Assembly (NCBI GenBank): GCA_038060895.1
Contig: JBBTCT010000009.1
Coordinates: forward strand, 272,082-336,081
Direction: 5' to 3'
Length of the DNA: 64,000 bases
Origin: Planctomycetota bacterium
Lineage (GTDB): Bacteria; Planctomycetota; MHYJ01; WSZJ01
Both the position numbers and the translations under genes were made by a program. Below are positions 22,708 to 54,290 of the stretch, in pieces. The notes below the pieces were generated by a model, which was not told where the DNA came from, did not search any database, and saw only the letters and a list, made by a program, of their open reading frames with translations. Positions within the stretch are counted from its first letter, which is position 1. Every line of letters begins with the position of its first letter.

Positions 22708-23937
22708 CTACCAGCCGTAGTCCCCGATGCTCGCCGGGACCATCCGGTCCGTCGGCGTATCAGGCGCGAGCTGAATCGCGTAGCCCATCGGCGCGGGATC
22801 GAAGTCGTTGTTCCGGAAGTTGTAGCGTGTGCCGCCCCAGCGGGTGCCGGTGCTGGTGAGGTCGAGTGAAATGAAGCGGCGGCCCTGGAGGCTCCAGACG
22901 CCGCGGCCGAGGATGGTGCCGCGGTAACCGCGCTCCTGATCTTTTTCTCCGGTGTCGTCGGCGGCCCAGCGGCCCTTGTGGACCAGTTCAACCGGGCCTT
23001 CGTAGCGGACGGTGACCCTGTCTCCCTTGACGGACTCGATCGTGGCCTTGAGTGACGCCTGCTTCACGGCCTCATCGGGAAAAGCGTTCGTCTGGCCGCG
23101 GACGTTATCGACGAAGTGGCACCGCACGAGCCGCCGGACCAGCGCCTCCGGAACCTCGCGGTAAGCGCCTTTCGAAGTGGACTCCGGCATCCATGACGTC
23201 ATCTCGTCCTTGAGGAACCACGCGTAGTCGATGTTCCATGCGGGATCGCGCCAGTCGCCGAATTTCTTTTCGCGCGGGAGGTCGCGGGAGTACACGCGCA
23301 ACGCCATTCCGTCCCCAGGGTAGCGGTCCTCCCAGCGGCCCTTGATTTCCTCCGGTTTCTCCTTCAGGAGGCGCCGGTCCTTCGGCAGGTCTTCCCAGGC
23401 CTTCAGCGCTTCCTTGAGCATCCGTTCCACGGCGTCGGCACTCGTCGAGTTCACGCTTGCCAGGAACTCGCCGGACGGCGCCAGCGCGTAGATGCCTTGC
23501 CGCGTCGCGTCCATCGGGTTGCCGGCGTAGTGGCCTTTCTCGGAGACGAGACGGAAGTGTTTACCCGCGGGGCCCTGGTTGCGGTGAAGGGTGTGGACTT
23601 CGTCGGTCGCGGGGATGAACGATTTCATCAGTTCCTGGACATCGGGTTCCGCCCAGACGGACCGCCGGGCGCGGACGCCGTTGTTTCAGGTGCAGGCGAG
23701 CGGGTGCCCGTTCATCGTCCAGAGGAGAACGGGCCGGCCGGCCTTGTTTCCGTCGAGCACCGCGGTCCAATAAGAGGTGCGCCACGGGATGGCGCGCCAC
23801 TTCTCTTCGTCGGGCTTCGGGAGAATCGTCTCCCGCATTGCGGCGAGGTTCTTTTCCGTCAGGACGGGATCGGCTGGCTGCGCGGACGCCTGCAGGCCTG
23901 CGAGGAGGAGAAGAGCGGCGGCGTGAGGGCGCATCAT
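22708..23937 (-). CDS. Putative exported thioredoxin-like selenoprotein (409 aa, Sec84 in C-T-U)
   Basis: ORFs 23686..24081 and 22708..23628 share a frame and are joined by one TGA: ...WTMNGHPLACT-TGA-NNGVRARRSVWAEPDVQELMKSF...; signal peptide MMRPHAAALLLLAGLQASA; hairpin downstream. Confidence 0.78.
23651..23670 (-). promoter_or_regulatory. Candidate SECIS hairpin
   Basis: mRNA GCCCGGC-GGUCC-GUCUGGGC at +16..+35 after the UGA; G-led loop. Confidence 0.62.
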
Positions 23938-24079
23938 GTCCCGGCATCTTAACCGGGCACACTGAAGGACGTACCGCGGGATCAAACGTTTCAGGCATCC
24001 GGTGGTCGACGGGCCGTTACGCGGGTCGCGCGGTTCGGTTACGATGATTGCGGTCCGGGGGGACCGGAGAACCCACTTC

Positions 24080-25483
24080 ATGCGCCAGCTTGCCGCATTT
24101 TTCTGCCTGATGGCCGCCGCGGCCGCCGCGGAAACCCCGTACCGCGACCTCCGCCGGCCGCCGATTCAGCGCCCCTACAAGTCGCTCGTCATTGAATGGA
24201 TTTCGCAGGAGCCGAAGAACAGTGTTTCGAAGGACGGCGATTCCAGCGGACCTTCGGAAGGGCAGTCGCTTTCCTACACCGCGCACCTGCGGAATCTGGG
24301 TTCCGTGAACACGGAGCCGGTGATGGTGCGGTGGTTCGTGGATGGCCTTCAGAAGTCCACCGGGACGATCCCCGGGATCGGGGCGGGCCAGCGTTCGACC
24401 GCGACCTTTGCGTGGACGGCGGCCGAGGGCCGGCACTGGATCCAGTGCGAGCTGCTCGGGCACGAGGAGTGGCTGACGATCGCCAGCGACGGGCTGACGG
24501 TGAAGGTGCTCGTCGAAAAAAAAACATTGGAGAAGTACGAGGACGAATTCGGCTCGTTCGCGCGCCGCTTCCAGGATTCATTCTCGGGCCTCCACGCCTC
24601 GTGGTCGGCCGTCCGCGACGCCCGGTTCGCTCCTGAAGGGATCGACGAGCGCCTCCGGATCGACGACGTCGCCGTCTACGAACGCGGCGGCAAGGATGCC
24701 GAGGTCCCGAAGGAATTCTGGGATCACCCCGACTTCGACCTCGAGATCGCCTGCGACCAGGGAGGCCCGATCGCCGGCTTCTACATCCCGGGTTACTCGA
24801 TCGGCCACAACTACTCCGGGAACCCCGGCCACGAATCCCTCTTCTCAGACTGGGGCGAGAACTGCCTCTGGCACGAGATCGGACATTTCCGCGGCGTGCA
24901 GGACTTCTACATCTTCCCGACGAAAGAGGGCGACGTCGGCAAGCTCGACGCCGCCGGGAACCCCCTGGAACTCCTCACCCTGCGCCCGGAATTCGCCGAC
25001 GACACCATGAACTCGCCGTACAAGCCGACCCGCTGGAACGAGTACTCGACGGCGGTGATTCGCATGAAGCGCGGCATTTCGCGCGTCGGGCGATGCGAGG
25101 ATCCGGCCAACACCTTCGGGCACATGTGGCGCCACGTCCCGGCGGCGGTGGAAATCCAGGTCATCGGGGAGGAAGGCAGGCCGGTGAAGTACGCCGAAGT
25201 CGAGGTTTACCGGCCGGTGCTCGGAGAAGATGGACGTGCCCGGGTCGCGAAAGACGCGAAGCCCCTGTACGAGGGAGCGGTCGATGACCAGGGACACTTC
25301 ATACTCGGCGACGATCCTTTCGGGAAGCGCAAGGCCGAGGCAAATCGCGCGCCCTGGGTGCTGATCCTGATCCGGAGAGAAGGAGTGATTCGCGGGCGGT
25401 ACCTGACCCTCATGGACATGAACCTGGCGTACTGGAAAGACCAGAAAGAGAAGGCCATTTTCCAGGTCGTCTGGAACAAGTGA
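24080..25483 (+). CDS. Exported protein with CARDB/Ig-like domain and HExxH metalloprotease motif
   Basis: Signal peptide MRQLAAFFCLMAAAAAA; TAHLRNLGS...VRWFVDG Ig-like segment; LWHEIGHF. Confidence 0.65.
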   Translation: MRQLAAFFCLMAAAAAAETPYRDLRRPPIQRPYKSLVIEWISQEPKNSVSKDGDSSGPSEGQSLSYTAHLRNLGSVNTEPVMVRWFVDGLQKSTGTIPGIGAGQRSTATFAWTAAEGRHWIQCELLGHEEWLTIASDGLTVKVLVEKKTLEKYEDEFGSFARRFQDSFSGLHASWSAVRDARFAPEGIDERLRIDDVAVYERGGKDAEVPKEFWDHPDFDLEIACDQGGPIAGFYIPGYSIGHNYSGNPGHESLFSDWGENCLWHEIGHFRGVQDFYIFPTKEGDVGKLDAAGNPLELLTLRPEFADDTMNSPYKPTRWNEYSTAVIRMKRGISRVGRCEDPANTFGHMWRHVPAAVEIQVIGEEGRPVKYAEVEVYRPVLGEDGRARVAKDAKPLYEGAVDDQGHFILGDDPFGKRKAEANRAPWVLILIRREGVIRGRYLTLMDMNLAYWKDQKEKAIFQVVWNK

Positions 25484-26583
25484 CAATCTGTCGAGAGAGC
25501 CGAATGAATCGCGGGAAGCGGGGTGGGGGAGTGGGACAGTTGACGGCGAAACGGGCGGACCAGAAGACGCTTAAGGTCTTCGCGCCCGGCCGCGTCAACC
25601 TGATCGGCGAGCACGTCGATTACTCGGGCGGCCCGGTCCTCCCGTTTCCTCTTCCCGGGCTCGGGACGACCATCTCGGGAAGGCGTTCGCCTGAGCTGCG
25701 GGCGACCAGCGACGCGTGCAGCGGCGCGGTGCGGCTTCACGCAGCGCAGCGCGGGCGCGGCTGGGGGTTGTACCTTTCCGCCGCATGGGACGCGCTTCGC
25801 GTCAAGTGCCCCGGAGTGGGAGGCTGGACGGGCGCGGTCTCCAGCAACCTGCCGATCGGCGCCGGACTCTCCTCGTCGGCGTCTCTCCTGGTCGCCGCGC
25901 TCCAGCTCTGGAACCGGTTGTACTCGCTTCGACTGGGCCCTCCCGACATCGCACACCTCGCCTGGCTCGCAGAAACGCGCGGCGTCGGGAAGCCCGTCGG
26001 GCCCATGGACCCCTACGCCATCGCCCTCGGCCGCGCCGGCTCCGCCCTGCTCTTCGATTGCGCTTCCCTGAACGGCCGCCACGTGCCGCTCCCGCCCGCC
26101 TACGCGGTGGTCTTTCATTCGGGGATTTCCCGGGCGCTTGCGGGGAGCCAGTACGGGAAGCGGCGGGCGCAGTGCGAGGCCGCGGCGAAGTCGCTCGGCG
26201 TGCGCCGGCTCGCGCAGGCCCGGGAAGAGGACTTGTGGCGGCTGAAGGGCGCGGAGCATAAACGCGCGAAACATGTGGTCGGCGAGTGCAGCCGCGTGCA
26301 CTCCGCGGCGCGATTGATGAAACGGGGCGAAACACGGTTTCTCGGGAATCTCCTGATCACGTCCCACGAGTCGCTTCGCACGGACCACGAGGTTTCTCTT
26401 CCCGCCGTCGATCGCCAGGTTCTGGAAGCGCGCGCCGCGGGTGCTCTGGGCGCGCGCATGGTCGGAGGCGGTTTCGGCGGAGCGATCCTCGCGATTTTCG
26501 AAAAGGGGGATCCACGCGGTCCACGCTTCGCCCGCTGCCAGCGCCGGGTCCTCTGGTCTGGGGACTGGCGCGCAAAGACCTAA
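25480..26583 (+). CDS. galK: Galactokinase-like GHMP kinase (start uncertain)
   Basis: APGRVNLIGEHVDY, PIGAGLSSSAS, SHESLRTDHEVS, GARMVGGGFGG. Confidence 0.8.
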   Translation: MTICRESRMNRGKRGGGVGQLTAKRADQKTLKVFAPGRVNLIGEHVDYSGGPVLPFPLPGLGTTISGRRSPELRATSDACSGAVRLHAAQRGRGWGLYLSAAWDALRVKCPGVGGWTGAVSSNLPIGAGLSSSASLLVAALQLWNRLYSLRLGPPDIAHLAWLAETRGVGKPVGPMDPYAIALGRAGSALLFDCASLNGRHVPLPPAYAVVFHSGISRALAGSQYGKRRAQCEAAAKSLGVRRLAQAREEDLWRLKGAEHKRAKHVVGECSRVHSAARLMKRGETRFLGNLLITSHESLRTDHEVSLPAVDRQVLEARAAGALGARMVGGGFGGAILAIFEKGDPRGPRFARCQRRVLWSGDWRAKT

Positions 26584-26627
26584 GGGAAGGAAGCCCGCGG
26601 CTCCCGGCCCTTCCGGGATCGGACGGG

Positions 26628-27026
26628 CTACCGTCCCGAGATGCCCAGGACATTTCCTTCAGGGTCCGCGAACGAAGCGCACCGGATGTCGTCACAGACT
26701 GCCTCGGCCTGGCGGACGATTTTGACCCCGCGGGAGACCAGGGCGTTGACGGTGTCATCCACGTTGCCGACGTTGAAAGAGATGCCGGTGTCGCGCGGCT
26801 TCGCGTCGTCGGAATGATGGAGCGCGAAGGTCGCGCCCTCGGTCTTGAACTCGCTCCAGCAGTCGCTCTCGTACGAGCAGGGCAGGCCGATCGTGTCGCG
26901 GTAGAAAGCGACGGCCTTCTTCATGTTCTTCACGAACACCATCACGTGTCCGATTCTGCGAGGCAGGAACGATTCCGCGGCGGGGGCGGACTTCCGGGCT
27001 GTCTTCTTCGCTGCTTTCGCGGGCAT
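26628..27026 (-). CDS. VOC/glyoxalase family protein
   Basis: IGHVMVFVKNMKKAVAFYRD, ISFNV, FADPEGN. Confidence 0.85.
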   Translation of the reverse strand: MPAKAAKKTARKSAPAAESFLPRRIGHVMVFVKNMKKAVAFYRDTIGLPCSYESDCWSEFKTEGATFALHHSDDAKPRDTGISFNVGNVDDTVNALVSRGVKIVRQAEAVCDDIRCASFADPEGNVLGISGR

Positions 27027-27146
27027 GAGCGGCACCTCTTCTTGTGGGTGGACGAAGGCTAGAAATTGCCGCGGAGGCCTGTCAATGGAGAACCGGCCTG
27101 CCACGGCGGTAGACGCCCCCTCGACCTCGGCTTAGCATCGCCCAGC

Positions 27147-28589
27147 ATGCCCGACCCCGCATCCGCTTCGGCCGACCTCGCCCGACTCCGCATCGCACGC
27201 GACGACGACGACTCGCGAAGCGGATCTGCGTTCGCGCGCATGGCGATGATCGGAGTGGCCGCGCTGGTCCTCGCCGTAGGGGGATGGGTCGCCTGGGACC
27301 GGCTGCTCCGCCCGCTTCCCGTCGTCGGCGTCTTCCGCGTCCCCGCCACAGCCGCTTCCGCTTCAAAGACGCTCGATGCCAGCGGTTACCTCGTGCCCCA
27401 GCGCCGTGCGGAGGTCGCGACCAAGGTTGCGGGCGTCGTGGCGCGCGTGCTGGTCGATGAAGGCGACACGGTTGCGGAGGGACAGGCGCTCGCCGAACTC
27501 AACGGAGACGCCGAAAAAGCGCGACTCGACGAAGCGGAGGTCGGGGTGCGCGAAGCGAAGGCGCTGCAGGTTTCGGCCTGGAAGGGAATGGACGAGGCGA
27601 AGGCGCAGGTGGAGGCCTCGAAGCGGGCGGTTGAGGAGGCGGCGGCCGGAAAGCCCGCGGCGGCGGAAGCCCTGGAGGAAGCGGCCGCGAAGCGCGAGGA
27701 AGCGAGGCGGGATTTCGAGCGAAAGAAGAAGCTATTTGAGACGAAGGACATCGGCGAGGGCGAGTTCGAAACGGCCGAGGCGGCGTGGAAGTCGGCGGAC
27801 GCACGATGGCGCGGGGCGGAGGCGAACCTCGTGATGGCGGACGCGCGGCTGAAGCAGGCCTCCGCGAACGTCGCCACGGCCGAATCCGGCGTGGAGAGAA
27901 TGAAGGCCGCGGCGGAAGGGGCGGATGCCCGGGCCTCGGCGGCGGAGTCGCGCGTGAAGCAGGCGAAAATCGCGGTGGACGACATGGTCATCCGGTCGCC
28001 GATCGCGGGACGTGTGACGGCGCGAAAGATCCACCCGGGCGAGGCGGCGTCTCCGGCGGGGATCACGACGGGGACTCGCGGCGGGGCGCTCTTCACCGTG
28101 GCGGACTTTTCGACGCTTGAGGCGGAGGTGGACGTCAACGAGTCGCGGCTGTCGGAACTGCGACAGGGGCAACCTGCGCGGATTGCGGTCGATGCCGTCC
28201 CTTCAAAGAGGTACCGCGGCGAGCTGCGGCAGATCGTGCCGACCGCGGATCGGCAGCGGGCGGTCGTCAAGGTCCGCGTGAAGCTCATCGATCCGGACGC
28301 GGCGCTGCTCCCGGAAATGGGGCTACGCGTGACCTTTGTCGAAAACGCCTCTGTTTCCCTCGAGACCCCCGCGCCGCAGATCCCGCGCGAGGCCGTCGTC
28401 CGGGTGGACGGCAAGACCGTCGTGTGGATCGTCGCGGACGGCAAGGCGGCGAGGCGCGACGTGGAGCTTGGGGAAGAAAAGAACGGAAAAGTCGACGTGA
28501 AGAGCGGTTTGTCCGGCGGCGACCTCGTGGTGGTCGCCAATAGAGTTCCGATGTCCGAGGGCCTCAAGGTCAAGGCGGAGGAGAAATGA
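27147..28589 (+). CDS. Efflux periplasmic adaptor subunit (MacA/HlyD-like)
   Basis: Single TM; ASGYLVP, VDEGDTV, IRSPIAG lipoyl halves; long alpha-hairpin; EVDVNE. Confidence 0.88.
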   Translation: MPDPASASADLARLRIARDDDDSRSGSAFARMAMIGVAALVLAVGGWVAWDRLLRPLPVVGVFRVPATAASASKTLDASGYLVPQRRAEVATKVAGVVARVLVDEGDTVAEGQALAELNGDAEKARLDEAEVGVREAKALQVSAWKGMDEAKAQVEASKRAVEEAAAGKPAAAEALEEAAAKREEARRDFERKKKLFETKDIGEGEFETAEAAWKSADARWRGAEANLVMADARLKQASANVATAESGVERMKAAAEGADARASAAESRVKQAKIAVDDMVIRSPIAGRVTARKIHPGEAASPAGITTGTRGGALFTVADFSTLEAEVDVNESRLSELRQGQPARIAVDAVPSKRYRGELRQIVPTADRQRAVVKVRVKLIDPDAALLPEMGLRVTFVENASVSLETPAPQIPREAVVRVDGKTVVWIVADGKAARRDVELGEEKNGKVDVKSGLSGGDLVVVANRVPMSEGLKVKAEEK

Positions 28590-29272
28590 GCGACGTCCTC
28601 GTCGAGGTGGCCGAAGTCACGAAGGACTACCGGCGCGACAAGCAGTCGATCCGGGTGCTGGAAGCGCTGTCGCTGACGATTCCGCGGGGCGATTTCCTGG
28701 CGCTGATGGGACCGAGCGGTTCGGGGAAGACGACCCTCCTCAATCTCATCGCCGGCATCGACCAGCCCACCGCAGGGAGAATCACGGTCGACGGCAAGGT
28801 CATCACCGGGCTCGGCGAAGGCGCATTGGCGAAGTGGCGGTCGCGGACCACCGGCTTCATCTTTCAGCTCTACAACCTCATTCCGGTGCTCACGGCCTAC
28901 GAAAACGTCGAGTTGCCGCTTCTCCTCACGAACCTCTCGCGCAGCGAGCGGCGCCAGCACGTGATGCAGGCGCTCGACATCGTCGGGCTGACCGATCGCG
29001 AAAAGCACTTCCCGCGCCAGCTGTCCGGCGGTCAGGAACAGCGCGTGTCCATCGCCCGGGCCATCGTGGTGGACCCGCTGCTGCTCCTTGCGGACGAACC
29101 GACGGGCGACCTGGATGCGAAATCGGCGGAGGAAGTGCTGACGCTTCTCCAGCGGCTGAACAGGGAATTCAAGAAGACCATCGTCATGGTCACGCACGAC
29201 CCGAAGGCGGCGGCGAGGGCGACCAGGATCCTGCACCTCGAAAAAGGACAACTCGTGGAGAACGCAGCGTAA
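28586..29272 (+). CDS. ABC transporter ATP-binding protein (MacB/LolD type)
   Basis: GPSGSGKTT, GFIFQ, LSGGQEQR, ADEPTGDLD, VTHD. Confidence 0.93.
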   Translation: MSDVLVEVAEVTKDYRRDKQSIRVLEALSLTIPRGDFLALMGPSGSGKTTLLNLIAGIDQPTAGRITVDGKVITGLGEGALAKWRSRTTGFIFQLYNLIPVLTAYENVELPLLLTNLSRSERRQHVMQALDIVGLTDREKHFPRQLSGGQEQRVSIARAIVVDPLLLLADEPTGDLDAKSAEEVLTLLQRLNREFKKTIVMVTHDPKAAARATRILHLEKGQLVENAA

Positions 29273-30423
29273 TGCTCCGGCTCATCTGGAAGAACGCGTG
29301 GCGCAGCAAGCGCAGGACCGTGCTCACGGTGCTGTCGGTCGCGGTGTCGCTGTTCCTTCTCTGCACCATGCTCTGCTACCTCTCCTCGGGCGACACGCAG
29401 CTCGAAAACGCCGGCGCTTCGATGCGCGTCGTGACGCGCCACCAGACGTCGCTGACGTTCTTTCTTCCCGAGGCGTACACGCAGAAAATTGCAAACGTGC
29501 CGCACGTGACGACGGTGCAGGGGTGCGTGTGGTGGGGAGGCCAGGTGGAAGGGAAGGAAATGAGCCTCTTCATGAGCACGATCGCCGCGGACCTTGAGCC
29601 TACGGAGGCCATGTGGGACGACTATAAATTCGAGCCGGGCGTGATCGACAAGATGCGCGGTGAGGTTCGCGGGGCGGTGATCGCCAGGCGCCTGCTGGCG
29701 CGGTGCCAGGAGCAGTGCGGCGACAGCTGGCAGATCGGCAAGACGGTGACCATCAAGTCGCCGATCTTCAAGCACACAATCGACCTTGTGCTGCTGGGGA
29801 CGTGCGAAGGGCCCGACGAGAGCATTCTGATCTTCCGGAGGGACTACCTGGAGAAGGTAAGGGACAACCCGGGGCAGATCGGCTATTTCTGGGCCAGGGT
29901 CGACAAGGCCGAGAACATCCCTGGCGTGTGCCGTGACGTCGACGCGCTTTTTGCCAATTCTGAAAACGAGACGAAAACGGAAACCGAGAAGGCGTTCATG
30001 CAGAGCTTCATGTCGATGATGGGGAACATCCAGGACCTCGTGCGGAACATCGGCCTGGCAATCGTCATGATGATCCTCATGGTCGCGGCCAACACCATGG
30101 CGATGGTCGCGCGCGAACGCACGACGGAACACGCGGTCATGCGCTGCCTCGGGTTCACCCGCGGCCGCATCGCGATGCTCTTCGTCTCGGAAAGCGTCCT
30201 GATCAGCCTGCTCGGCGCCGTCGTCGGAGTCGGTGGCGCCATCCTTCTCTGGAGGCCGGGCAAATTCGACCTCGGCGGCATGGCGCCCTTCTTCCAGATG
30301 ACCCCGGGCACCACGCTCATCGGCCTCCTCGTCGCCCTCGGCGTCGGGCTGGTCGCAGGCGCCGCACCGGCGATCGCCGCGGCGCGTCGAAGCGTCGTCG
30401 ACGGCCTGAGGAGGGTTGACTAG
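29272..30423 (+). CDS. MacB/FtsX-like ABC permease
   Basis: KNAWRSKRRTVLT, NTMAMVARERTTEHAVMRCLGF. Confidence 0.88.
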   Translation: MLRLIWKNAWRSKRRTVLTVLSVAVSLFLLCTMLCYLSSGDTQLENAGASMRVVTRHQTSLTFFLPEAYTQKIANVPHVTTVQGCVWWGGQVEGKEMSLFMSTIAADLEPTEAMWDDYKFEPGVIDKMRGEVRGAVIARRLLARCQEQCGDSWQIGKTVTIKSPIFKHTIDLVLLGTCEGPDESILIFRRDYLEKVRDNPGQIGYFWARVDKAENIPGVCRDVDALFANSENETKTETEKAFMQSFMSMMGNIQDLVRNIGLAIVMMILMVAANTMAMVARERTTEHAVMRCLGFTRGRIAMLFVSESVLISLLGAVVGVGGAILLWRPGKFDLGGMAPFFQMTPGTTLIGLLVALGVGLVAGAAPAIAAARRSVVDGLRRVD

Positions 30424-31584: not shown

Positions 31585-31586
31585 GG

Positions 31587-34066: not shown

Positions 34067-34217
34067 GTCCGACCCCCAGGTGCCAGGCCCGTCGCCGAAT
34101 AGCATGAATGAACGGCGGCTTCGAGCTGTCGATGCGCCGCTATCGTCGCACACGGATCAAGGTCGAACAAGCGAAGCGGTTGCCTCGCAAGCACCCCGCG
34201 GCATTCATTTCGCCGCT

Positions 34218-36628: not shown

Positions 36629-36691
36629 GATGCAGGGAATGATGTCACATCCATGGCAAGTGAGACAAGTCCCGCCACTCGGTCCGGGCGC

Positions 36692-41802: not shown

Positions 41803-41845
41803 GGATGCATTGTCGGAGCCGGAGCCCGGTCGCGGCAACCGGGAA

Positions 41846-43108
41846 CTATTTCAGGACGGGAAGCGACACGGCAAGCGGTTTGCCGTCGCGAAGCAGCTTC
41901 AGCTGCACGGACTTGCCCGCCTCGCGGGTGAATCGGAACCAGGTCTGGAAGTGCTGGTGCGACCTGAAGTCGGAAACACCGTCCACGGCGAGCAGGATGT
42001 CCCCCTTCTGCACGCCTGCCTTCCGGGCGCTGCGGCCGGTTTCCGCGCGCTCTCCCCAGTCGATCAGGTAGGAGATCCGGATGGCGAAGGCGTCCGGTGC
42101 GAGCCCGAGTTTTTTCTTTTCGTCCGCCGGGAGATCACCGCCGCCGAAACCGGGATCGGGTTTCAGCAGCCACATCGCCGGGCGCCACGAATACTCCAGC
42201 GGCGTCGAGGCTTTCCAGCCTTCAGACAGGACGATCTTCGCCGGGCGCTCGTCCTGGCCGCGCGCGAACATGACCTCGATCGTTCCCCCCGACGGCGGGG
42301 TGTTGTGGAGAACCCATTGCACGTCCGGTTCCGTGCTCACCCTCGCTCCATTTACGCTGACCAGGCGATCGCCCGCGGACAACCCGGCGATCGCCGCAGC
42401 CGAGTCCTTCGTCACTTCTTTCAGGACGGCGGGATTCGCCGGGTCCAGGCGCAGGCCGAGTTTGTCGGGAAGCGGCCAGATCCACTTTCCCTCGGGCGTC
42501 CACGTCCGGTCGCTCATCGACTGCTCGCGCATCGCCTCCGTCGCCATGTGGCAGTGAAAACACGAGATCTCCTTGTTCTTCTTGAGCCGCTCCGCGAAAA
42601 CCGGGATCTCCTCGATCGGGAGAGGCGCCGTCGCTTCGCGCACCTTTCCGGAAGCGCGGTAGGCTTCGTCCTCCTTCAGACCCGCGGACAGGAGATGCGT
42701 CAGGGCCTCCATCGACAACCGGGCGTCCGCGGATTCCCAGCTTCGACCGCCGTAACGGTGGTAAATGGTGCCGTCCGCATTCATGAGCAGCGCCGCGAAC
42801 GTGAGATCCCAGTCGAACACGTAGGTGTTGAGATCCACGCCTTTCATATTCGTCACCCGGACGCACACCCAGGCTTTCGCGGCGTCACGGAACCCCTGCG
42901 GCGGACGGACGACCTGCCCGTCGAACCCGGAACAGTCTTTTCAGGATTCGCAGCGAAAGACGACCAGCATCGGCCGCCCGGACTTCCGGGACTCCTCGCG
43001 CGCCGCAGCCAGGTCCGTGAGCCACGGAAAATCTTCTCCCCCCGCGGAAGCGGGACGCAGGAGCGCAAGGGCGAGCAGGGAAGCTGCGAGAGCGAGGCGG
43101 GATCGCAT
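41846..43108 (-). CDS. Putative exported thioredoxin-like/PDZ selenoprotein (420 aa, Sec56 in C-E-S-U-K-D-C) with CxxCH motif
   Basis: From ATG 43108: MRSRLALAASLLALALLRPASAGGEDFPWLTDLAAAREESRKSGRPMLVVFRCES-TGA-KDCSGFDGQVV..., in frame with ORF 41846..42868; two PDZ-like segments (AGLSAGDRLVSVNG, AGVQKGDILLAVDG). Confidence 0.85.
42904..42922 (-). promoter_or_regulatory. Candidate SECIS hairpin
   Basis: mRNA GACGGGC-AGGUC-GUCCGUC (7-bp stem) at +19..+37 after the UGA; GCAGGUC matches the apex of the E. coli fdhF SECIS. Confidence 0.75.
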
Positions 43109-43115
43109 GCGGCCG

Positions 43116-44249: not shown

Positions 44250-44347
44250 GCGCGTAGCGTATCGAAGTCCGCCCGCGGCTTACAGGAATTGGAAATCGGC
44301 CAGGCAGGCGCCTTAACCGGACGGCTGCAGGATCTTGACTTCCGTTC

Positions 44348-45007: not shown

Positions 45008-45049
45008 GCGCTTCAGTTTCCTTATCTCGGGTTGCGAAGTCCGGGAATC

Positions 45050-46207: not shown

Positions 46208-46368
46208 TGTGGGAGGAAGTCTATAACAGGAGTGGAAGCGGAAAGCGAGGTGGAAGGGTTGGCCCGCAGGGCTGGCCAGTCCATTTCATCTCAGCTTTTC
46301 TGTGAACCTCATTCAAACCTCACGCGATCAAGGTGGTACAGCGCCGAAGTACGAAAGGACCTACTGTC

Positions 46369-47616
46369 ATGACATGCGACGCAACTCGTTCACAGCTAAC
46401 GGATTATGTTAAAAACGAGCTGACGAGAGCCGAAGCCGATGACGTCGCCGCTCACCTCAATACCTGCGAAAATTGCCGATCCAACGAGGCCGAAATTCGA
46501 AAGAATTTCGGCCTTCTTCGTTTGGCAACGGCTCCCAAGCCCCCCGACGCTCTCTGGGCCCGGATTTCCGCTTCTGTTGATGAGATCGAAGCCGGCAGGG
46601 GGCTGGAAGTGGCCGCAAGGCCAGCCGCGTGGGTCTGGCGGGGGATGGCCATCGCCGCGACCCTCCTCATTACCATCTCTGCCGTCATGCTGTTCAATCA
46701 CACCGGACGCCCCGATGCTCCGGCCGTTGCCCGCCTGGATCTGCTCGGACCGGGAGTCACGATTTACCGTATGACAGGTACGGACCGCCAGCCGATGAAA
46801 CAAGGCAGCACGCTGGCGCAAGGCGAGACACTCGTCATGGACCCAGGAGCGGCTGCAATTTTTACGATCCAGGGCGTCGGAAAGTTCAGGGTTGCGGGCG
46901 GCTCCACGCTTCGTATCACAGGCCCCCGCGCCATTCAGCTGGAAAAAGGCGAACTCATCGCCGACATCAACCCGGGCGGCAAAGGTTTTGAGATTTCGGC
47001 GCCGCAGGCAAGCGCCATCGTCCTCGGAACCCTCTTTCGCGTCAGCGCCGCCGGCGAGCGCACTTCGCTGACCGTCGCCCGGGGAAGCGTCAGATTCAGC
47101 AATTCATCCGGTGCCGTCGACGTGAAGGCCGGATATCAGTCGGCCGCGCTCGCAGGAAAGTCTCCCGCGGCCCCCCTTGAACTCGCCGCCGATGCCGCCG
47201 ACTGGGATCTCTTCCGGTCCGTCGCACCCGCCCCGCGCGTCGAACTCTCGATCGAAGCGGCGACCGCGGGAAAGCCGGTGCACTTCCAGATTACGCTCAG
47301 TTCCGACGCGCCGACGGACATCGAGGCGGGCGTCACGGAGCGCACCTACGTCATCCTCACGCTCGAAGACCCGACCGGCGCCCGCCGACTGGTCCGCCTT
47401 GCGGCCGGGGATCTCACCGCGTCCTGCGACGGGCAGGTCGTGAATGGCCTCGCTTCCATCGATCGCGAAAAGAGACTCGTCCTCAAGGGCGAATTGCGCG
47501 GGCTCGCCGCGGACGGAACGTGGCGCGTCAGCGCGCTCTTCGCCAGCGGCGGCCGCGAGGACTCGTGGGCCGGTTATTCCGAATCGCAGACCATGGCGAT
47601 CGAGGTGAAGCGGTGA
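46369..47616 (+). CDS. Zinc-finger anti-sigma factor with TM and FecR-like domain
   Basis: HLNTCENC (HxxxCxxC); TM MAIAATLLITISAVMLF; LEKGEL, IVLGTLFRV, VARGSVRF (FecR). Confidence 0.8.
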   Translation: MTCDATRSQLTDYVKNELTRAEADDVAAHLNTCENCRSNEAEIRKNFGLLRLATAPKPPDALWARISASVDEIEAGRGLEVAARPAAWVWRGMAIAATLLITISAVMLFNHTGRPDAPAVARLDLLGPGVTIYRMTGTDRQPMKQGSTLAQGETLVMDPGAAAIFTIQGVGKFRVAGGSTLRITGPRAIQLEKGELIADINPGGKGFEISAPQASAIVLGTLFRVSAAGERTSLTVARGSVRFSNSSGAVDVKAGYQSAALAGKSPAAPLELAADAADWDLFRSVAPAPRVELSIEAATAGKPVHFQITLSSDAPTDIEAGVTERTYVILTLEDPTGARRLVRLAAGDLTASCDGQVVNGLASIDREKRLVLKGELRGLAADGTWRVSALFASGGREDSWAGYSESQTMAIEVKR

Positions 47617-47683
47617 ACCGATCCGTGGCTGGCGGCGTCCATTCCAGTAGCATCCGGCACTTCATTGAAACCCGGAGGAACTG

Positions 47684-49795
47684 ATGGACCTGTCGCCAAT
47701 CCTGGGGAAGATCGAATCGGTTCGCGGCCGCGCGCGGCAGCTTGTGACGCTGGACGGCGCGTGCCGCGTGGCGCTCGTGGTGCTGGTCGCGGCGCTTTTC
47801 TCGTTCTGCATCGACTTTTTCATTCCGAAATTGCCGCTCGGCGTCCGCGCCACCGTCCTGATCGCCGGCCTCGCGGCGGCCGGGTTCGCGGCCTGGCGCT
47901 ACGTCGTCACGCCGCTCTCGGTCAAACTCTCGGATGACGACCTCGCGCTTTGCGTCGAGCAGCAGTTCCCCGACTTGCAGGACCGGCTGATCAGCGCGAT
48001 CCAGCTCAACCGGCAGCGCGGCGAATTCTCGCGCTTCAATTCGCCCGAACTCGTCGACGCCCTCGTGAAAGACGCCATGAACGAAGCGGCGCCCCTGGAC
48101 TTCTCGCCGGTGCTGCTCCCCGCGGGCCCGATGAAGATTGCAGCGGGGACGGCGGCGGCGGTTCTGGTAGCGGGAGCCTTGGCGATCTGGCAGTTCGATG
48201 CCGTGAAGACCTGGGCCGCGCGCCTCTTCAGCGATTCGGTTCAGTGGCCGAAGAAGACGCGGATCGTCGTGCTGGAGCCTTCGGGCAACCCCGTGACCGT
48301 GGCCAAGGGCGACGACCTGCGAGTCGAGGTCGAGACGCAGGGGTCCGTGCCCCGCAAGGCGCTGATTCACTATCGCTTCTCCGGCCAGGGTGAGCCGATC
48401 TCCCGGCCGATGCGCGCCGGTTCGAAGGGCAACTGGCTCTTCGATTTCTCGAAGGTCATCGAGCCGATGGAGTTCTGGATCGAGGCCGGCGACGACGAGA
48501 CGCTTCCCGTGACGGTGCAGGTGCTGAACCCGCCGACGGTCGAGCGGATCACGCTTCTCTATGACTACCCGGACTACACGCAGCTCAAGGACACGGACCC
48601 GTCGGCGCCGGTTGAGGACGGGAATATCGTGGCGCCGCCCGGGACGCACGTGACGGTGACGGCGCAGGCGAACCTCGACATTTCGAAGGCGAAGGCGGTG
48701 TTCGGGAGACGGGGCGAGGAAGACATGCGCGAGCTGGTGGTGAAGAACGACGCGCAGGGCCGGCCGCGGATGGTGGTGGCGGAGATCGACGTGCTGGCAA
48801 ACACGCAATACGCGATCTGGCTGCAGGCGACCAACGGGCTGCAGACGAATTCGCCGGTGCGGTACTCGATCAAGGCGATCGAGGACAGGCCGCCGGAAAT
48901 CAAGATCAGCGAGCCCAACCTCGACAAGTTCTGCACGGTGCAGGCCCGGATCCCGATCCGGTTTGCGACTTCGGACGACTTCGGCGTGATGAAGCTCGAA
49001 CTGATGATCAAGACCAACGACGCCAAGCGGCCCGAGCAGACCGTGGCCCTGGACGCGTTCAACACCGAGAGCTACCCGTCGAAGAAGATCGACACCGAGT
49101 ACTTCTTCGACATGACCGAGTTCGGCGCCAAGGAAGGCATGGTCATCCAGTACCAGATCGTCGCTCGCGACGGCCGCGAAATCCCGAAGGCGAACGAAAC
49201 GCGGTCGAGGCTCTTCCAGTTCACCGTGATCAAGCGCGACGACCTGCTGAAGAAGATGGAGGACCGCCTGGCTCGGATCCGCGAGGAACTGCAGCGCGTG
49301 ATCCAGTTCCAGGACGGCGGACGCGGGGAAGTGTCGCGCCTGATGGATGCGGTCGGTACGAAAGACATGCTCAGCGCGGTCGAGCGGCAGGCCGTCAACG
49401 GCGCCGCGGGGAACCAGCGCCGCATCACGCAGCACATGGAGCGCATCACGCACGAGTTCGACGAGATCGTCCGCGACATGCGCTACAACAAGCTCCTCGA
49501 GGGCGGCTCCGAAGCCCGCCTCAAGAAGCCCGGCGACCTGCTCCATGGCGTCACCGAGTACAAGTCGCCCGAAGTCGCGACGCTTCTCGGCTCCGCCGCC
49601 AGCGTCGGGCAGGCGAAAGATCGCATGAACAAATTGCAGGACACTTCCATTAAGCAGGAAGACATCCTCACCGACCTGACCACCGTCCTGGCTCTCCTGA
49701 CCGAGTACGAGACCTACCTGGAGGTTGTGCGCTACGTGCGCGAGCTGCTCCAGAAGGTCAAGGGGAACCTCGACGAAATGAGACGCACCAAGTAA
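47684..49795 (+). CDS. Membrane protein with Ig-like repeats and coiled coil (DUF4175-like)
   Basis: Three TM segments; VEQQFPDLQDRLISAIQL; YPDYT; DRPPEI; SDDFGV. Confidence 0.68.
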   Translation: MDLSPILGKIESVRGRARQLVTLDGACRVALVVLVAALFSFCIDFFIPKLPLGVRATVLIAGLAAAGFAAWRYVVTPLSVKLSDDDLALCVEQQFPDLQDRLISAIQLNRQRGEFSRFNSPELVDALVKDAMNEAAPLDFSPVLLPAGPMKIAAGTAAAVLVAGALAIWQFDAVKTWAARLFSDSVQWPKKTRIVVLEPSGNPVTVAKGDDLRVEVETQGSVPRKALIHYRFSGQGEPISRPMRAGSKGNWLFDFSKVIEPMEFWIEAGDDETLPVTVQVLNPPTVERITLLYDYPDYTQLKDTDPSAPVEDGNIVAPPGTHVTVTAQANLDISKAKAVFGRRGEEDMRELVVKNDAQGRPRMVVAEIDVLANTQYAIWLQATNGLQTNSPVRYSIKAIEDRPPEIKISEPNLDKFCTVQARIPIRFATSDDFGVMKLELMIKTNDAKRPEQTVALDAFNTESYPSKKIDTEYFFDMTEFGAKEGMVIQYQIVARDGREIPKANETRSRLFQFTVIKRDDLLKKMEDRLARIREELQRVIQFQDGGRGEVSRLMDAVGTKDMLSAVERQAVNGAAGNQRRITQHMERITHEFDEIVRDMRYNKLLEGGSEARLKKPGDLLHGVTEYKSPEVATLLGSAASVGQAKDRMNKLQDTSIKQEDILTDLTTVLALLTEYETYLEVVRYVRELLQKVKGNLDEMRRTK

Positions 49796-49823
49796 CGAAA
49801 CCGGGGGCCAGAAGGAGATCGCC

Positions 49824-52814
49824 ATGCGCAGATTCGCCGGACTCATCAGCACGGGGCTCGCCCTGTGCGTTCTCGTCACCGCGCATCTGTACGCGGACGA
49901 CCAGGGCGGGAACGCCAATCGCGTCGTGCTCGAACGCGAGAAGGAGATCGAGAAGCGAGTTAACGACCTGAAGGACAAGATGAAGCGCGTCGCCGATGGG
50001 CTCCAGGAGAAAGAACCCGAGGCGGCCGCGCGGCTCTACGCCGCTGGCCAGGCACTCCAGGGATCGCTTCTTGAGGAAGACATCAGGAAGGTCATCGCCA
50101 ACATCGCCGAGGCCAAGATGGGAACGGCGATCGAGCAGCAGGAAGAGATCGTGAGCGACCTCCAGGTGATTCTCGACATTCTCGAGAACCGGAACAACGA
50201 GGGCGACCTGAAGAAGAAGCTCGAGGCGATCCGGAAATTGATCGCCGAGCTGAAAGGAATCCAGAAGGAACAGAACGACACCACCAAGAAGACCGAAGAG
50301 ATGAACAAAGAGCGGGAGCAGGACACCGCCGAGATGAAGGAGAAGCTCGACGCCGCGATCAAGGAACAGCAGGCGCTCGAGGACACGCTCAAACAAAATG
50401 ACACAGCCGGGATGGAAAAGGACATCGAGGCGGCGAAGAAGGAGCTCGAAGCGCTCAAGGCCGAGCAGGACAAGCTTCAGAACGAGACGAAGGACGCGCA
50501 GTCGAAGGAAGTGCGCGACCTGGCCGACGCGGTCAAGGGCCTGAAGGACGTCATCAAGAAACAGGAAGACGCGATTGCGAAGGCGAAGGCGTCCGCCGAA
50601 GGCGCGCAGACGACGAAGGAAGCGATCGAAGCCATCGAGAAGATCCAGAAAGAACAGGAAGCGATCCAGAAGCGCACGAAGGAAGCCGCCGACGAGGATT
50701 CAGCGCAGAAGATGGGTTCGATCCAGAAAGCGCAGGAGAAGAACTCGAAGGACACGGCGCGCGCCGGCGAGAAGCTGGACGGCATGCCGGAGACAAAGGG
50801 TTCGAACGAGGCGAAGAAGGCGCTCTCCGACGCGAAGAAGGCGATGGACCGGGCTGCCAAGGACCTCGAGGACGAGACGCCCGGCCTCGCGCAGCAGAAC
50901 GAGCAGAAGGCCTCCGACGCGCTCGAGAAGGCGAAGCAGGCCCTGAAGGACGAGATGGCCAATGCCGAGAAGAATCGCGAGCAGGATCTGGCCGACCAGG
51001 CCAAGGCGCAGGGCGATCTGAAGGAAGCGACGCAGAAGCTCGCCGACCAGATGTCCAAGGTCGGTGAGGAATCGGCCAGCAAGCCCACCAAGGACGCCCT
51101 CAAGGAAGCCGGCGAGAAGACCAAGGGTGCTTCCGGCGACATGAAGAAGGCCGAGCAGGAACTGGGCCAGAAGAACCCGTCGGGCGCCAAGTCGAACCAG
51201 GACCAGGCGCTCAGTTCGCTCAACCAGGCGAAGGAGAAGCTGGAGCAGCTCGAGGCCCAGCTTGCGCAGAAGGACGCCAAGGCGATGAGCGAGGTCGCCA
51301 AAAAGCAGCAGAACCTGCAGGACAAGGCGAACGAGCTGGCCAAGCAGCTGCACGAGATGGGGCAGAAGTCCGGCGAGAACGGCGACATGAAGAAGGCCGC
51401 GGACCAGGCTTCCAAGTCGACCAAGAGCGCCAGCCAGGAGATGGGCGACGCTTCCCAGAAGATGAGCGACGGCAAGTCGTCCGAGTCGCAGGACAACCAG
51501 CAGCAGGCGAGCAAAGATCTGCAGAAGGCCGCCGACGCGCTGGACAAGATGAAGAAGGCGCTGGCCGCTTCGAAGGAAGGCCAGGAAAAGAAGGCGAAGG
51601 AAGTCGCCGACAAGCAGGCTGAGCTCGAGAAGAAGATGAAGGACCTGGCCGAGAAGATGGAAGAAGTGGCCAAGAAGAACGCAGACAAGGATCCGCAGGG
51701 CGCCGCTTCGATGAGCAAAGCCGGCCAGAAGACCGACCAGGCTTCCGGCGAGATGAAGAAGGCCGGGAAGCAGATGGAGCAGAAGGACAACGAGAGCGCG
51801 CAGGCGAACCAGGCGCAGGCCAAGAAGGCGCTGGAAGAAGCCAAGAAGGAGCTGGAGAAGCTGAGCCAGCGCGAGTTGACGGAGGAGCAGAAGCGCCGGC
51901 TCGAGCAGTTGAAGGAACGTCAGCGGAAGATCGAAGAGCAGCTGAAAAAGATGCAGGAGAATGCTGCGAAGGTGCCGGAGAAGAAGTCGGCGGCGTCGCT
52001 CGGAGAGGCGTCGAAGTCGGCCGGGCAGACGGGGCAGAGCCAGCAGAAGCAGGATACGCAGAAGTCGCAGGAGGACAGCGAGAAGACGGAAGAAGACATG
52101 CAGAAGGCGCTGGAGGACCTGGAAGAAGCGGAGCGGCAGTACGCGCAGCAGCTGCAGGAAGAGCAGCTCCAGCAGATGGAGAACAAGCTGAGGGAGCTGG
52201 TGGAGAAGCAGCAGCGCATCAACGATGAAACGCGCCGGCTGGATGCGATCAAGGTGAAGGAGGGCGATCTCGACCGCAAAGGCCAGATGGATGTGCGCAA
52301 GATCAAGAACGAGCAGGAAGAGCTGAAGAAGCAGTCGGAGGAAGTCCGGGCCAAGACCGAGGAGGAGAAGTCGACTGTCGCGGAGTGGATCCTCGAGACG
52401 TGCCGTGACGACATGGGGGCCATCGCCGAGGAGCTCGGGAAGCAGGAAGTCGGCGAGTACACGCAGGAACTGCAGCTGGACGTGCTCACGCGGCTGAAGG
52501 AGCTCGTGCAGGCGCTCGAGAAGGAGCGCCAGCGCCGCAAGAAGAAGCAGCAGCAGCAGGGCGGAGGCGGCGGTGGCGGCGGGCCGCTGATCCCGGACGT
52601 GGCCGAGCTCAAGCTCCTGAAGACCATGCAGGTTTCGCTCAAGAAGAAGACGGAGCGCTTCTCGGCCGAATCGACGAAGGAAGCGCACAAGGAGCTGGAT
52701 CCCGTGCAGAAGGCCATTCTTGCCCGGCTCCGTGCGGAGCAGGGGCATATCGCTGAGCTCACCCGTGAATTCACGGACAAAATCAAAGAGAAAATGCAGG
52801 GAGGCGGGAAATAA
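49824..52814 (+). CDS. Exported very long coiled-coil protein (K/E/Q/A-rich repeats)
   Basis: Signal peptide ending LYA; about 900 aa of helical repeats (ASxxMxxAxxxL); QQQQGGGGGGGGPLIPDVAELKLLK near the C-terminus. Confidence 0.8.
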   Translation: MRRFAGLISTGLALCVLVTAHLYADDQGGNANRVVLEREKEIEKRVNDLKDKMKRVADGLQEKEPEAAARLYAAGQALQGSLLEEDIRKVIANIAEAKMGTAIEQQEEIVSDLQVILDILENRNNEGDLKKKLEAIRKLIAELKGIQKEQNDTTKKTEEMNKEREQDTAEMKEKLDAAIKEQQALEDTLKQNDTAGMEKDIEAAKKELEALKAEQDKLQNETKDAQSKEVRDLADAVKGLKDVIKKQEDAIAKAKASAEGAQTTKEAIEAIEKIQKEQEAIQKRTKEAADEDSAQKMGSIQKAQEKNSKDTARAGEKLDGMPETKGSNEAKKALSDAKKAMDRAAKDLEDETPGLAQQNEQKASDALEKAKQALKDEMANAEKNREQDLADQAKAQGDLKEATQKLADQMSKVGEESASKPTKDALKEAGEKTKGASGDMKKAEQELGQKNPSGAKSNQDQALSSLNQAKEKLEQLEAQLAQKDAKAMSEVAKKQQNLQDKANELAKQLHEMGQKSGENGDMKKAADQASKSTKSASQEMGDASQKMSDGKSSESQDNQQQASKDLQKAADALDKMKKALAASKEGQEKKAKEVADKQAELEKKMKDLAEKMEEVAKKNADKDPQGAASMSKAGQKTDQASGEMKKAGKQMEQKDNESAQANQAQAKKALEEAKKELEKLSQRELTEEQKRRLEQLKERQRKIEEQLKKMQENAAKVPEKKSAASLGEASKSAGQTGQSQQKQDTQKSQEDSEKTEEDMQKALEDLEEAERQYAQQLQEEQLQQMENKLRELVEKQQRINDETRRLDAIKVKEGDLDRKGQMDVRKIKNEQEELKKQSEEVRAKTEEEKSTVAEWILETCRDDMGAIAEELGKQEVGEYTQELQLDVLTRLKELVQALEKERQRRKKKQQQQGGGGGGGGPLIPDVAELKLLKTMQVSLKKKTERFSAESTKEAHKELDPVQKAILARLRAEQGHIAELTREFTDKIKEKMQGGGK

Positions 52815-52816
52815 CC

Positions 52817-53530
52817 ATGAACATCATCACGAACGTGCTGCGTTTCGCGACGGCCGGCGCCCTGGCGGCGGCCCTGATGGTCCCGGCGTGGGCGGACGAC
52901 GAGGAATTCCCGGACGGTCCCGCGGCGGAAGGCGAAGAGGCTCTTCCGGGCTCGGACGAGGAGGAGATGGAGGAGGCGGAGATCGACCCGCTGAAGACGC
53001 TCGACGAGATCATCTCGAAGATGAAGGACGCGGAGTCTTCCCTGGCCCAGGCGGGATCGTGGAAGGCGACCGACAAGCAGGGAAACGTCATCGAGGAGAT
53101 CGAGAAGCTGGTGAATGCAAAGGATCTGCAGGACAAGGCGATCCGCGAGATGGAGAAGATTTTCACCGGGTCGAAGGAAGGGCAGGGCCAGGCGGTCGAG
53201 GGGCTGGAGAAACTGATCAAGGCGGCGAAGGAGCAGGAGGGGCAGGGCGAGGGGAAAGAGCAGCAGAAGAAGAAAGAGCAGCAGCAGAAGCAGCCCGGGC
53301 AGCAGAAGCCGAACAAGCCGTCGAACCCGGCGCAGCAGCCCTACAATCCTTCCGGCAATCCGGAGACTGGCGCCCGCGAGCGGACAGGCGAATTGACCGA
53401 ACGGTGGGGAAGCCTTCCTGATAGACTGAGAGACGAAATCAGCCAGGCCGACGACGAGTTCAGGAGCACGAAAGGGACGTATCGCGAGAAGCTGATGGAG
53501 TACAGCCGGCTCCTCGGGGCGTCCGAATAA
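52817..53530 (+). CDS. Exported acidic helical protein (Cys-free paralog A)
   Basis: Signal peptide ending AWA; Q/K-rich linker; C-terminal WGSLPDRLRDE...YREKLMEY. Confidence 0.8.
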   Translation: MNIITNVLRFATAGALAAALMVPAWADDEEFPDGPAAEGEEALPGSDEEEMEEAEIDPLKTLDEIISKMKDAESSLAQAGSWKATDKQGNVIEEIEKLVNAKDLQDKAIREMEKIFTGSKEGQGQAVEGLEKLIKAAKEQEGQGEGKEQQKKKEQQQKQPGQQKPNKPSNPAQQPYNPSGNPETGARERTGELTERWGSLPDRLRDEISQADDEFRSTKGTYREKLMEYSRLLGASE

Positions 53531-53588
53531 TAGAGTGAACGAGGTGCACCCGTCGGGCGTCTAACCAGCAGGAATCGGAGGAACGACC

Positions 53589-54290
53589 ATGAGATGGAAC
53601 CTGGTGCTGAGCGGAGTCCTTTCGCTGGGATTGTCGTTCCCGGCCTTTGCGGACCCCGGAGAGGAATTCCCGGAGGGGCCGAAGGGTGAAGAAGAGGCGC
53701 TGCCGGGAAGTGACGAAGAGGAGATGGAAGAGGAACAAATCGATGTGCTGGGCACGCTGGAGACGATCGTCGGCGATATGAAGGATGCTGAAAAGAGCCT
53801 CGCCGACATCAACGGCTGGAAGGCGACGGATGCGCAGGGCAACGCGATCGACGACGTGAAGCGACTGATCGACGCCCAGGACCTGCAGAAGAAGGCGATC
53901 GACGACATGTCCCGTATCTTCGAAGGCGGCAAGAACGAGCAGGAAGCCGCTGTCCAGGGCCTCGAAAAGCTGATCAAGGCCGCGAAGGAAGGCGACTGAG
54001 GGGGCAGCTGCTCCGACAAGAAAACCTCCCAGGCTGGGAGCAAGCAGAAGACGCCGAAGAATGCGAATCCCAAGACTGCCAGCAATCCTGCGACCGCGCC
54101 CTACAACCCGAGCGGATCGCACGACGACACGCCGCTGGTCGACCGCACTTCAGAACTCAAGGATCGCTGGGGAAACCTGCCCGATCGCCTCCGCGACGAG
54201 CTCAGCCAGGCCGACGATGACTTCCGCAACGTCAAGGGCGACTACCGCGAGAAGCTTCTCGAGTACTCGAAGATGTTGAGCCAGGAGTAG
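53589..54290 (+). CDS. Paralog B of the preceding gene with an in-frame TGA at codon 137 (putative selenoprotein, 233 aa)
   Basis: After AAKEGD-TGA the frame continues GGSCSDKK...PYNPSG...WGNLPDRLRDELSQADDDFRNVKGDYREKLLEYSKMLSQE-TAG, collinear with paralog A. Confidence 0.72.
54026..54040 (+). promoter_or_regulatory. Candidate SECIS hairpin
   Basis: CUCCC-AGGCU-GGGAG at +27..+41 after the UGA; no equivalent in paralog A. Confidence 0.5.

Follow-up and report, generated by a model that had tools for sequence, protein, structure and literature searches.

The prototype of the bacterial selenocysteine (Sec) insertion sequence (bSECIS), a coding-region stem-loop after a UGA, is that of E. coli fdhF. 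In the general bacterial model set out in section 5 and the Fig. 2 legend of a 2026 review (PMC13188914), the apical loop has 3–9 nucleotides (nt) with G in position 1 or 2, mostly as GG or GU, the upper stem has 4–16 base pairs (bp) and the distance from UGA to loop is 16–37 nt. Table 1 of the same review lists, among the catalogued families, the Trx7/PDZ domain-containing (seleno)protein NF041199 with the entry 'CxxU, 1 Sec', and the UGSC-containing selenoprotein family NF041046. The window considered here is a stretch of 64,000 nt from a Planctomycetota bacterium (assembly GCA_038060895.1, contig JBBTCT010000009.1, positions 272,082 to 336,081 of the forward strand). It has about 65% GC, and among named database entries the nearest relatives of its proteins come from metagenome-assembled genomes of Planctomycetes. 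Three of its genes, called 1, 2 and 3 below, each carry an in-frame UGA, and coding sequence runs on in that frame before and after it. The three TGAs are very probably Sec codons, and the apparently broken genes very probably intact genes for exported selenoproteins. Their features, in window coordinates, are as follows.

22708-23937, minus strand: gene 1 coding sequence, 409 amino acids (aa); predicted Sec is residue 84, motif C-T-U
23688-23686, minus strand: gene 1 putative Sec codon TGA, context LLWTMNGHPLACTU-NNGVRARRSVW
23650..23671, minus strand: gene 1 candidate SECIS hairpin, 8 bp with one bulged U; loop GGUCC at 23663-23659, loop start +23
23881..23937, minus strand: gene 1 signal-peptide-like N-terminus, MMRPHAAALLLLAGLQASA (heuristic only)
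41846-43108, minus strand: gene 2 coding sequence, 420 aa, Trx7/PDZ domain-containing selenoprotein; predicted Sec is residue 56, motif C-E-S-U
42943-42941, minus strand: gene 2 putative Sec codon TGA, context PMLVVFRCESU-KDCSGFDGQVVR (the downstream part starts KDC)
42904..42922, minus strand: gene 2 candidate SECIS hairpin, 7 bp; loop AGGUC at 42915-42911, loop start +26
43043..43108, minus strand: gene 2 signal-peptide-like N-terminus, MRSRLALAASLLALALLRPASA (heuristic only)
53589-54290, plus strand: gene 3 coding sequence, 233 aa; predicted Sec is residue 137, motif U-G-G-S-C
53997-53999, plus strand: gene 3 putative Sec codon TGA, context KAAKEGDU-GGSCSDKK
54026..54040, plus strand: gene 3 candidate SECIS hairpin, 5 bp (CUCCC / GGGAG); loop AGGCU at 54031-54035, loop start +32
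54001..54014, plus strand: small hairpin GGGGC-AGCU-GCUCC directly 3′ of the gene 3 UGA, probably incidental
52817..53530, plus strand: Sec-free paralogue of gene 3, adjoining it upstream, 237 aa; Gly at the Sec column, no Cys

The translations confirm what the original prediction had claimed for these genes, namely three exported-looking products, each with a TGA at most four residues from a Cys (gene 1 has the Cys at −2, gene 2 has one at −3 and another at +3, and gene 3 has it at +4). A pattern test likewise recovers its three loops and their starts. That test took the place of loop classes read from the minimum-energy fold, in which only one of the three genes scored as having a 5-nt loop since the loops close further: those of genes 1 and 3 form one more pair, leaving GUC and GGC triloops. 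The energies of the 60-nt folds are −22.2, −19.5 and −17.1 kcal/mol for genes 1, 2 and 3. Each N-terminus has a basic n-region and a hydrophobic core followed by ASA, ASA or AFA, and all three pass a crude script that asks for a basic n-region, an uncharged hydrophobic stretch of 9–16 residues and a small-x-small site. Read by eye, the predicted signal peptidase I cleavage falls between MMRPHAAALLLLAGLQASA and Q in gene 1, between MRSRLALAASLLALALLRPASA and G in gene 2, and between MRWNLVLSGVLSLGLSFPAFA and D in gene 3. The description of the genes as unrelated is only partly right, as genes 1 and 2 would both begin with a thioredoxin-fold domain.

The best explanation overall, to which a rough probability of 0.88 is given, is that the three TGAs are decoded as Sec by the standard pathway, that the products are exported and that they belong to a large, export-biased selenoproteome. 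Compensatory changes in the hairpin stems, retention of the TGA in orthologues, the existence of Cys homologues and the presence of the Sec machinery together make these very probably real selenoprotein genes. SelB with Sec-tRNA(Sec) would bind the coding-region hairpin, whose G-containing apical loop lies 23–32 nt downstream, and the ribosome would insert Sec at the UGA instead of terminating. The products, with what look like Sec-type (secretory) signal peptides, would then be exported to the cell envelope, that of gene 2 carrying a CxxU redox motif and that of gene 1 a CxU motif in a putative thioredoxin fold; gene callers cut such genes at the TGA. The mechanism seems ordinary, and being that of the textbook it adds nothing new on recoding. 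Sec usage seems unusually broad and envelope-biased, and it is the inventory that matters.

Like the general bSECIS, the three hairpins are coding-region stem-loops after a UGA, with starts at +23, +26 and +32 and stems of 8, 7 and 5 bp. There is no model-defining difference; the gene 3 stem is at the short end and no Rfam family is reached at the gathering score. For gene 1, 12 orthologues share the hairpin as their consensus structure; 91.7% of cells are paired, and the covariation is 0.235 (0.110 in shuffles, none of 500 reaching 0.235). Pair 18-39 is CG in eight and GC in three of the 12, pair 20-37 is CG in six and GU in four, and pair 24-32 is GU in seven and AU in four; two relatives have AGGUC or AGGUG loops on re-matched stems. 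For gene 2 the hairpin GACGGNC-AGGUY-GNCCGUC is the RNAalifold consensus of 14 orthologues and 99% of its cells are paired. Two of its pairs change on both sides, and pair 27-35 is found as GU, AU and GC; its covariation score is reached by one of 500 shuffles, and controls slid along the alignment have at most 55% of cells paired. The clearest compensation of the three is that of gene 3, where CUCCC...GGGAG in the window stands beside UUCCC...GGGAA in the orthologue L018 and CUUCUC...GAGAAG in L019. Three pairs change on both sides among four sequences, partly via amino-acid changes (S to N, G to E). It had also been suggested that the small hairpin right after the gene 3 UGA shortens the effective spacing. 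That hairpin is identical in the nearest orthologue, but two of its five pairs are broken in L019 and three of five in L020; being unconserved and broken in two of four sequences, it does not bear out the suggestion.

How often such hairpins arise by chance was gauged with the motif of the original prediction (five loop nucleotides reading GGY.. or AGGY., 5 bp or more of stem, and a loop that starts between +16 and +37). It follows 4408 of 100000 random in-frame codons (4.4%) and 592 of 13401 Cys codons; among stops it follows 74/1540 true TGA (4.8%), 39/1160 TAG and 14/504 TAA. To find it at three genes out of three by chance is unlikely (about 1e-4), though the motif was defined after the three had been seen. 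A further comparison was restricted to stops with the best coding score of the six frames on both flanks (614 TGA, 538 TAG and 301 TAA). With a stem of at least 7 bp the motif follows 22 TGA, 2 TAG and 1 TAA of these. A strong G-loop hairpin, defined as a terminal hairpin of −9 kcal/mol or below with its loop start at +14 to +37 and G in loop position 1 or 2, follows 60/614 TGA, 19/538 TAG and 22/301 TAA. It is present at 26 of 52 candidate Sec sites (the three of the window and 49 others, hand-picked from lists of the genome-wide scan), as against 221 of 4000 random positions and 90 of 1541 true TGA stops, an enrichment of about nine-fold. Hairpins equally frequent after true stops or random positions would have been a reason to drop the original prediction; they are instead enriched after candidate Sec-TGAs.

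It had further been proposed that the lineage departs from the general bacterial SECIS and has one of its own, of the form stem-(A)GG(U/C)-stem around a 5-nt loop. AGGUC is indeed the commonest single loop, at 5 of the 52 candidates, and the 5-bp form of the motif follows 45/614 coding-flanked TGA as against 22/839 TAG and TAA pooled (13/538 and 9/301). However, the general model published in section 5 of PMC13188914 already takes in this motif, and most of the 52 candidates are without it. Their loops vary (AGGUC 5, GUC 4, GGC 3, AGUU 3, GAUA and many singletons), with starts from +17 to +37, and the C-terminal SECIS-binding wing_3 of SelB is, on inspection, an ordinary winged-helix domain (PF09107). 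A lineage-own element is quite improbable. The three hairpins fit the ordinary bacterial SECIS, and nothing lineage-specific is seen in them.

If the three TGAs were true stops, each locus would be two adjacent genes or a nonsense-mutated pseudogene. Table-11 gene calls do split the genes, and pieces from the window (P0005, P0126) are separate database proteins; adjacent genes in the same frame are, moreover, common, so that TAG and TAA controls pass a naive coding-flank filter. Against this, the TGA column is kept over 33–87% protein identity, in 12 of 12 fetched loci of gene 1 relatives and in 14 of 14 of gene 2, homologues and family models cross the TGA, and Cys replaces it in relatives. 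The post-TGA piece of gene 3 lacks its own start codon and shows homology to the C-terminal part of the uninterrupted paralogue. Termination is, on this evidence, very improbable, and Sec decoding is preferred.

Gene 1 has matches in 18 of 41 related genomes. Those that reach across the Sec position number 47, and in 43 of them, by our own count, there is an in-frame TGA. It has at least 286 relatives in the protein database at E <= 0.001. Among the 120 listed, almost all are 'hypothetical protein' entries of 272-347 aa covering the last 65-79% of the query, which is the post-TGA piece. Seven of those 120 are full-length, and at the Sec column five have Cys, one Trp and one Ala. The N-termini of the orthologues are likewise hydrophobic. 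In one congener (G002:C18:11944-13153, L009) the orthologue is split in two frames (residues 43-201 and 208-457), the cause being either a frameshift or a fault of assembly; genes 2 and 3 are on that contig too, and the synteny is otherwise kept.

For gene 2 the match to NF041199 is full-length, at 419.1 bits (cut-off 300), residues 28-417 of the protein being aligned to positions 2-389 of the 390 in the model. Pfam finds Thioredoxin_7 (PF13899) at residues 29-106, holding C53-E-S-U56, followed by two PDZ stretches. No difference from the catalogued family is seen for the window gene, which is therefore, as judged by sequence match, a member of NF041199 and not new. Exchange of Sec and Cys at its site rests on the '(seleno)protein' equivalog cut-off of NF041199 being exceeded. 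Some relatives of gene 2 have two TGAs, whereas the catalogue entry in Table 1 of PMC13188914 has one Sec. In seven of the 14 orthologues (L035-L040 and L042) the Cys of CxxU is also TGA, giving a potential UxxU with Sec codons 9 nt apart and one hairpin. Two gene 2 paralogues elsewhere on the contig, outside the window (C9:126523-129073), also have two TGAs.

The TGA of gene 3 is kept in four orthologues of the same genus, in the context KAAKE(G/S)(D/S)U-G(G/S)SC. The paralogue at 52817-53530 and all other relatives continue into a conserved C-terminal ...RWGNLPDRLRDELSQADDDFR...EYS... region, which places the post-TGA part in the same protein. In P0125, a full-length database protein 64% identical to gene 3, the U-GGS-C of gene 3 is matched by C-QGS-C, and in more distant relatives by CGGGSC and CANGAC; these form a Sec/Cys pair, aligned one residue out of register. 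Of 30 database relatives, 14 are fragments of 136-137 aa, and the four of them that were aligned end exactly at the TGA. Public entries thus cut relatives of genes 1 and 3 at the TGA, in line with the expectation that standard annotation fragments such genes.

The genome has selA (448.7 bits), a selB in a frame of 670 aa (GTP_EFTU, D2, beta-barrel, wing_2 and wing_3 domains; PF09107 at 71.8-76.2 bits), a selD (364 bits) that itself carries one in-frame TGA, and one tRNA-Sec (C4:13533-13624; Rfam 71.7 bits, gathering score 47). Absence of selA, selB or selC, which the original prediction had named as fatal to it, is thus not found: selA, selB, a selD likely to contain Sec and one tRNA-Sec are all present. 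A second tRNA-SeC called by ARAGORN (C1:472898-472990) is identical to the real one at 34 of 93 positions, has no Rfam tRNA-Sec match and is probably a false positive inside coding sequence. That TGA stands for some other amino acid, such as the Trp or Gly of codes 4 and 25, or is passed by near-cognate read-through, can hardly be right: the full-length gene 1 homologue P0010 does have W at the site, perhaps from a table-4 call or a real TGG, but TGA is the commonest stop of long open reading frames (1112 of 2313), so there is no global reassignment, the Sec machinery is complete, the aligned residue is Cys in five of seven gene 1 homologues and the sites lie in CxxU, CxU and UxxxC motifs of redox type.

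Genes 1 and 3 look, from their sequences, like members of uncatalogued selenoprotein families. Gene 1 matches no family in Pfam or NCBIfam at E <= 0.01, thioredoxin-type models included. Its AlphaFold2 model (61 sequences) has a predicted local distance difference test score (pLDDT) of 90.8, falling to about 64 around Sec 84. Foldseek gives no match to the model at E <= 0.001; its best rows are AGR2 and 3f9u, with a best E of 4e-3. With an exhaustive aligner residues 42-185 superpose on thioredoxin folds, and seven chains reach Z >= 8, all over residues ~42-190. The best is 3f9u_B, with Z 11.9 and a root-mean-square deviation (rmsd) of 2.9 over 119 residues. The nearest known folds are those of Thioredoxin_7, the DsbD C-terminal domain, DsbH and AGR-type proteins (3f9u, 2ju5 and 3ph9, at Z 11.9, 9.2 and 10.1, rmsd 2.4-3.5 and 114-119 residues), which gene 1 also resembles as an exported protein. 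It differs from them in having C-x-U after a six-residue insertion, MNGHPL, in place of CxxC, in the lack of a sequence-level match and in an extra beta-rich C-terminal domain of ~220 residues. The N-terminal domain is accordingly modelled as a thioredoxin fold, in which Sec 84 would occupy the CxxC position. Gene 1 is most likely a thiol/selenol-disulfide oxidoreductase, predicted to belong to a widespread unnamed family with Cys in its Sec-free relatives.

Gene 3 has no match at E <= 0.01 in Pfam or NCBIfam. Its U-G-G-S-C resembles the UGSC of NF041046, in the motif only; the protein differs in lacking an NCBIfam match at that threshold and in being an exported helical protein with the motif in a linker. 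The AlphaFold2 model is of low confidence (pLDDT 50.1), with helices at 53-135 and 183-232 and Sec 137 at the start of a disordered linker. This suggests an exported helical or disordered protein with Sec in a low-complexity linker ahead of a conserved helical C-terminus. The UxxxC loop, CxxxC in a relative, is probably redox-active or metal-binding. Upstream of gene 3 lie two large DUF4175 proteins and then the Sec-free paralogue. The DUF4175 pair (window 47684-52814, plus strand) has 703 and 996 aa, the second strongly purine-skewed and acidic, and this pair and the gene 3 paralogue pair are downstream of a FecR/zf-HC2 anti-sigma-like gene. The region may be an envelope operon.

The three genes are on different strands among unrelated neighbours, and the same layout is kept in the congener (G002, contig C18). 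With about 52 genes in 5.4 Mb some 0.3 are expected per 32 kb, and three in 32 kb make a mild local cluster. No functional link between them is seen; they would be three samples of one large selenoproteome.

Genome-wide, a Cys lies at most four residues from 121/614 coding-flanked TGA, 37/538 TAG and 30/301 TAA, and a paralogue elsewhere in the genome aligns a Cys or TGA at the stop for 54 TGA sites, three TAG and three TAA. The excess of hairpins after TGA is about 30 sites, which at the 50% sensitivity given by 26/52 suggests some 60 true sites. Altogether the sequence points to about 50–60 candidate Sec sites. The 49 outside the window were scanned against NCBIfam, and 15 of them against Pfam as well. 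A family model spans the TGA at 34 of the 49 by our own reading of the tables, the other 15 having motif or paralogue evidence only. The spanning matches include the catalogued types SelD, FdhA, MoeB, MsrA, AhpD-like, deiodinase-like, thioredoxin, ResA/TlpA-like and DsbD-like, and besides these many Thioredoxin_7-like UxxC proteins, DUF1223, two alpha-2-macroglobulins and a BNR protein.

Signal-peptide-like N-termini are found by the crude script in 31 of the 52 candidates as against 888 of 3208 long open reading frames, a figure inflated by paralogues and in which some positives may be membrane anchors. With dozens of further candidates and this excess, the proposal of a large envelope-targeted selenoproteome gains support. 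The original prediction as a whole is borne out in part: Sec-TGAs, machinery, fragmentation and dozens of candidates stand, the lineage SECIS and the mini-hairpin do not, and gene 2 is not new.

A naive scan of stops with coding-like flanks gave no excess of TGA over TAG and TAA and missed gene 2. It failed because neighbouring genes in the same frame are common, and gene 2 was missed because of its short upstream part. Such neighbours occur in the window, where a prenyltransferase/squalene-cyclase-like gene (54375-55454, plus strand) ends in TGA and an M24 aminopeptidase gene (55455-56717) follows with no gap. There is no Cys near this junction and the domains are separate.

In the portion of BSepDB set out in Table 2 of PMC13326102, the top ten genomes have 46-63 selenoprotein genes and are from Desulfobacterota, UBA8248/Nitrospinota and Dehalococcoidia, with no planctomycete in that table. 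The count here is comparable (52 hand-picked, ~60 by hairpin excess), though not curated to BSepDB standard; phylum, many uncatalogued families and signal-peptide bias set this genome apart. No report of a large planctomycete selenoproteome was found in the literature searched, the only related one being a 2016 paper which lists a few putative selenoproteins in two Planctomycetes (PMC4807772). The chances are slightly better than even that the selenoproteome of the genus is among the largest in bacteria (~50-60 genes, from a genome 86.5% complete), mostly exported and with many families outside the 119-family catalogue, such as gene 1 with its putative thioredoxin-fold CxU, gene 3 with UxxxC and the alpha-2-macroglobulins. 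Its suggested size would be on a par with the record holders, in a phylum outside them and with an export bias. If so, homology-based surveys would systematically have missed a periplasmic selenium-based redox network. Genes 1 and 3 appear to represent widespread families that have no Pfam or NCBIfam model and whose relatives are truncated at the putative Sec codon in public annotation. The matter bears on the undercounting of bacterial selenium use by homology-based catalogues and on planctomycete envelope redox chemistry.

Several observations weigh against Sec decoding at the three sites or against a large exported selenoproteome. In this genome, with its 65% GC, a loose SECIS-like hairpin follows some 24% of in-frame positions taken at random (1476 of 6000), so that a hairpin alone is weak evidence, and at the gathering threshold Rfam has no match in the window. 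The conserved peptide RRSVW overlaps the gene 1 hairpin, and part of that hairpin's conservation is therefore at the protein level. The stem of gene 3 has just 5 bp in this genome. One orthologue of gene 3 in the same genus, and its paralogues, have neither Sec nor Cys at the site, so some relatives can do without the residue. The 52 sites were chosen by hand and paralogues among them are not independent, and signal peptides and export bias alike rest on the crude script.

Among the other candidates, two alpha-2-macroglobulins (C12 ~5475, plus strand, and C21 ~65299, minus strand; L053 and L059:1-1803) have A2M and TED matches that span an in-frame TGA in LP(H/Y)G-U-FEQ. The TGA is at what we take to be the position of the thioester cysteine (GCGEQ), and a putative 'selenoester' macroglobulin is possible. 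In a DUF1223 protein (C9:183179, minus strand; L052:13146-14096) PF06764 scores 157.9 bits across the site, and a candidate U-E-S-C replaces the N-terminal CxxC. Neither alpha-2-macroglobulin nor DUF1223 is in the table of the 119-family catalogue (PMC13188914). Seven paralogues of ~1150 aa with FG-GAP repeats, ASPIC/UnbV and a C-terminal thioredoxin-like part (C24:200004, C30:16101 and C36:20001/38552/44030/47398/50835) have in common an in-frame TGA (APDYU-THFWRQV) that no family model covers; five of the seven have the hairpin GGCGRC-AGGUC-GYCGCC at +17.

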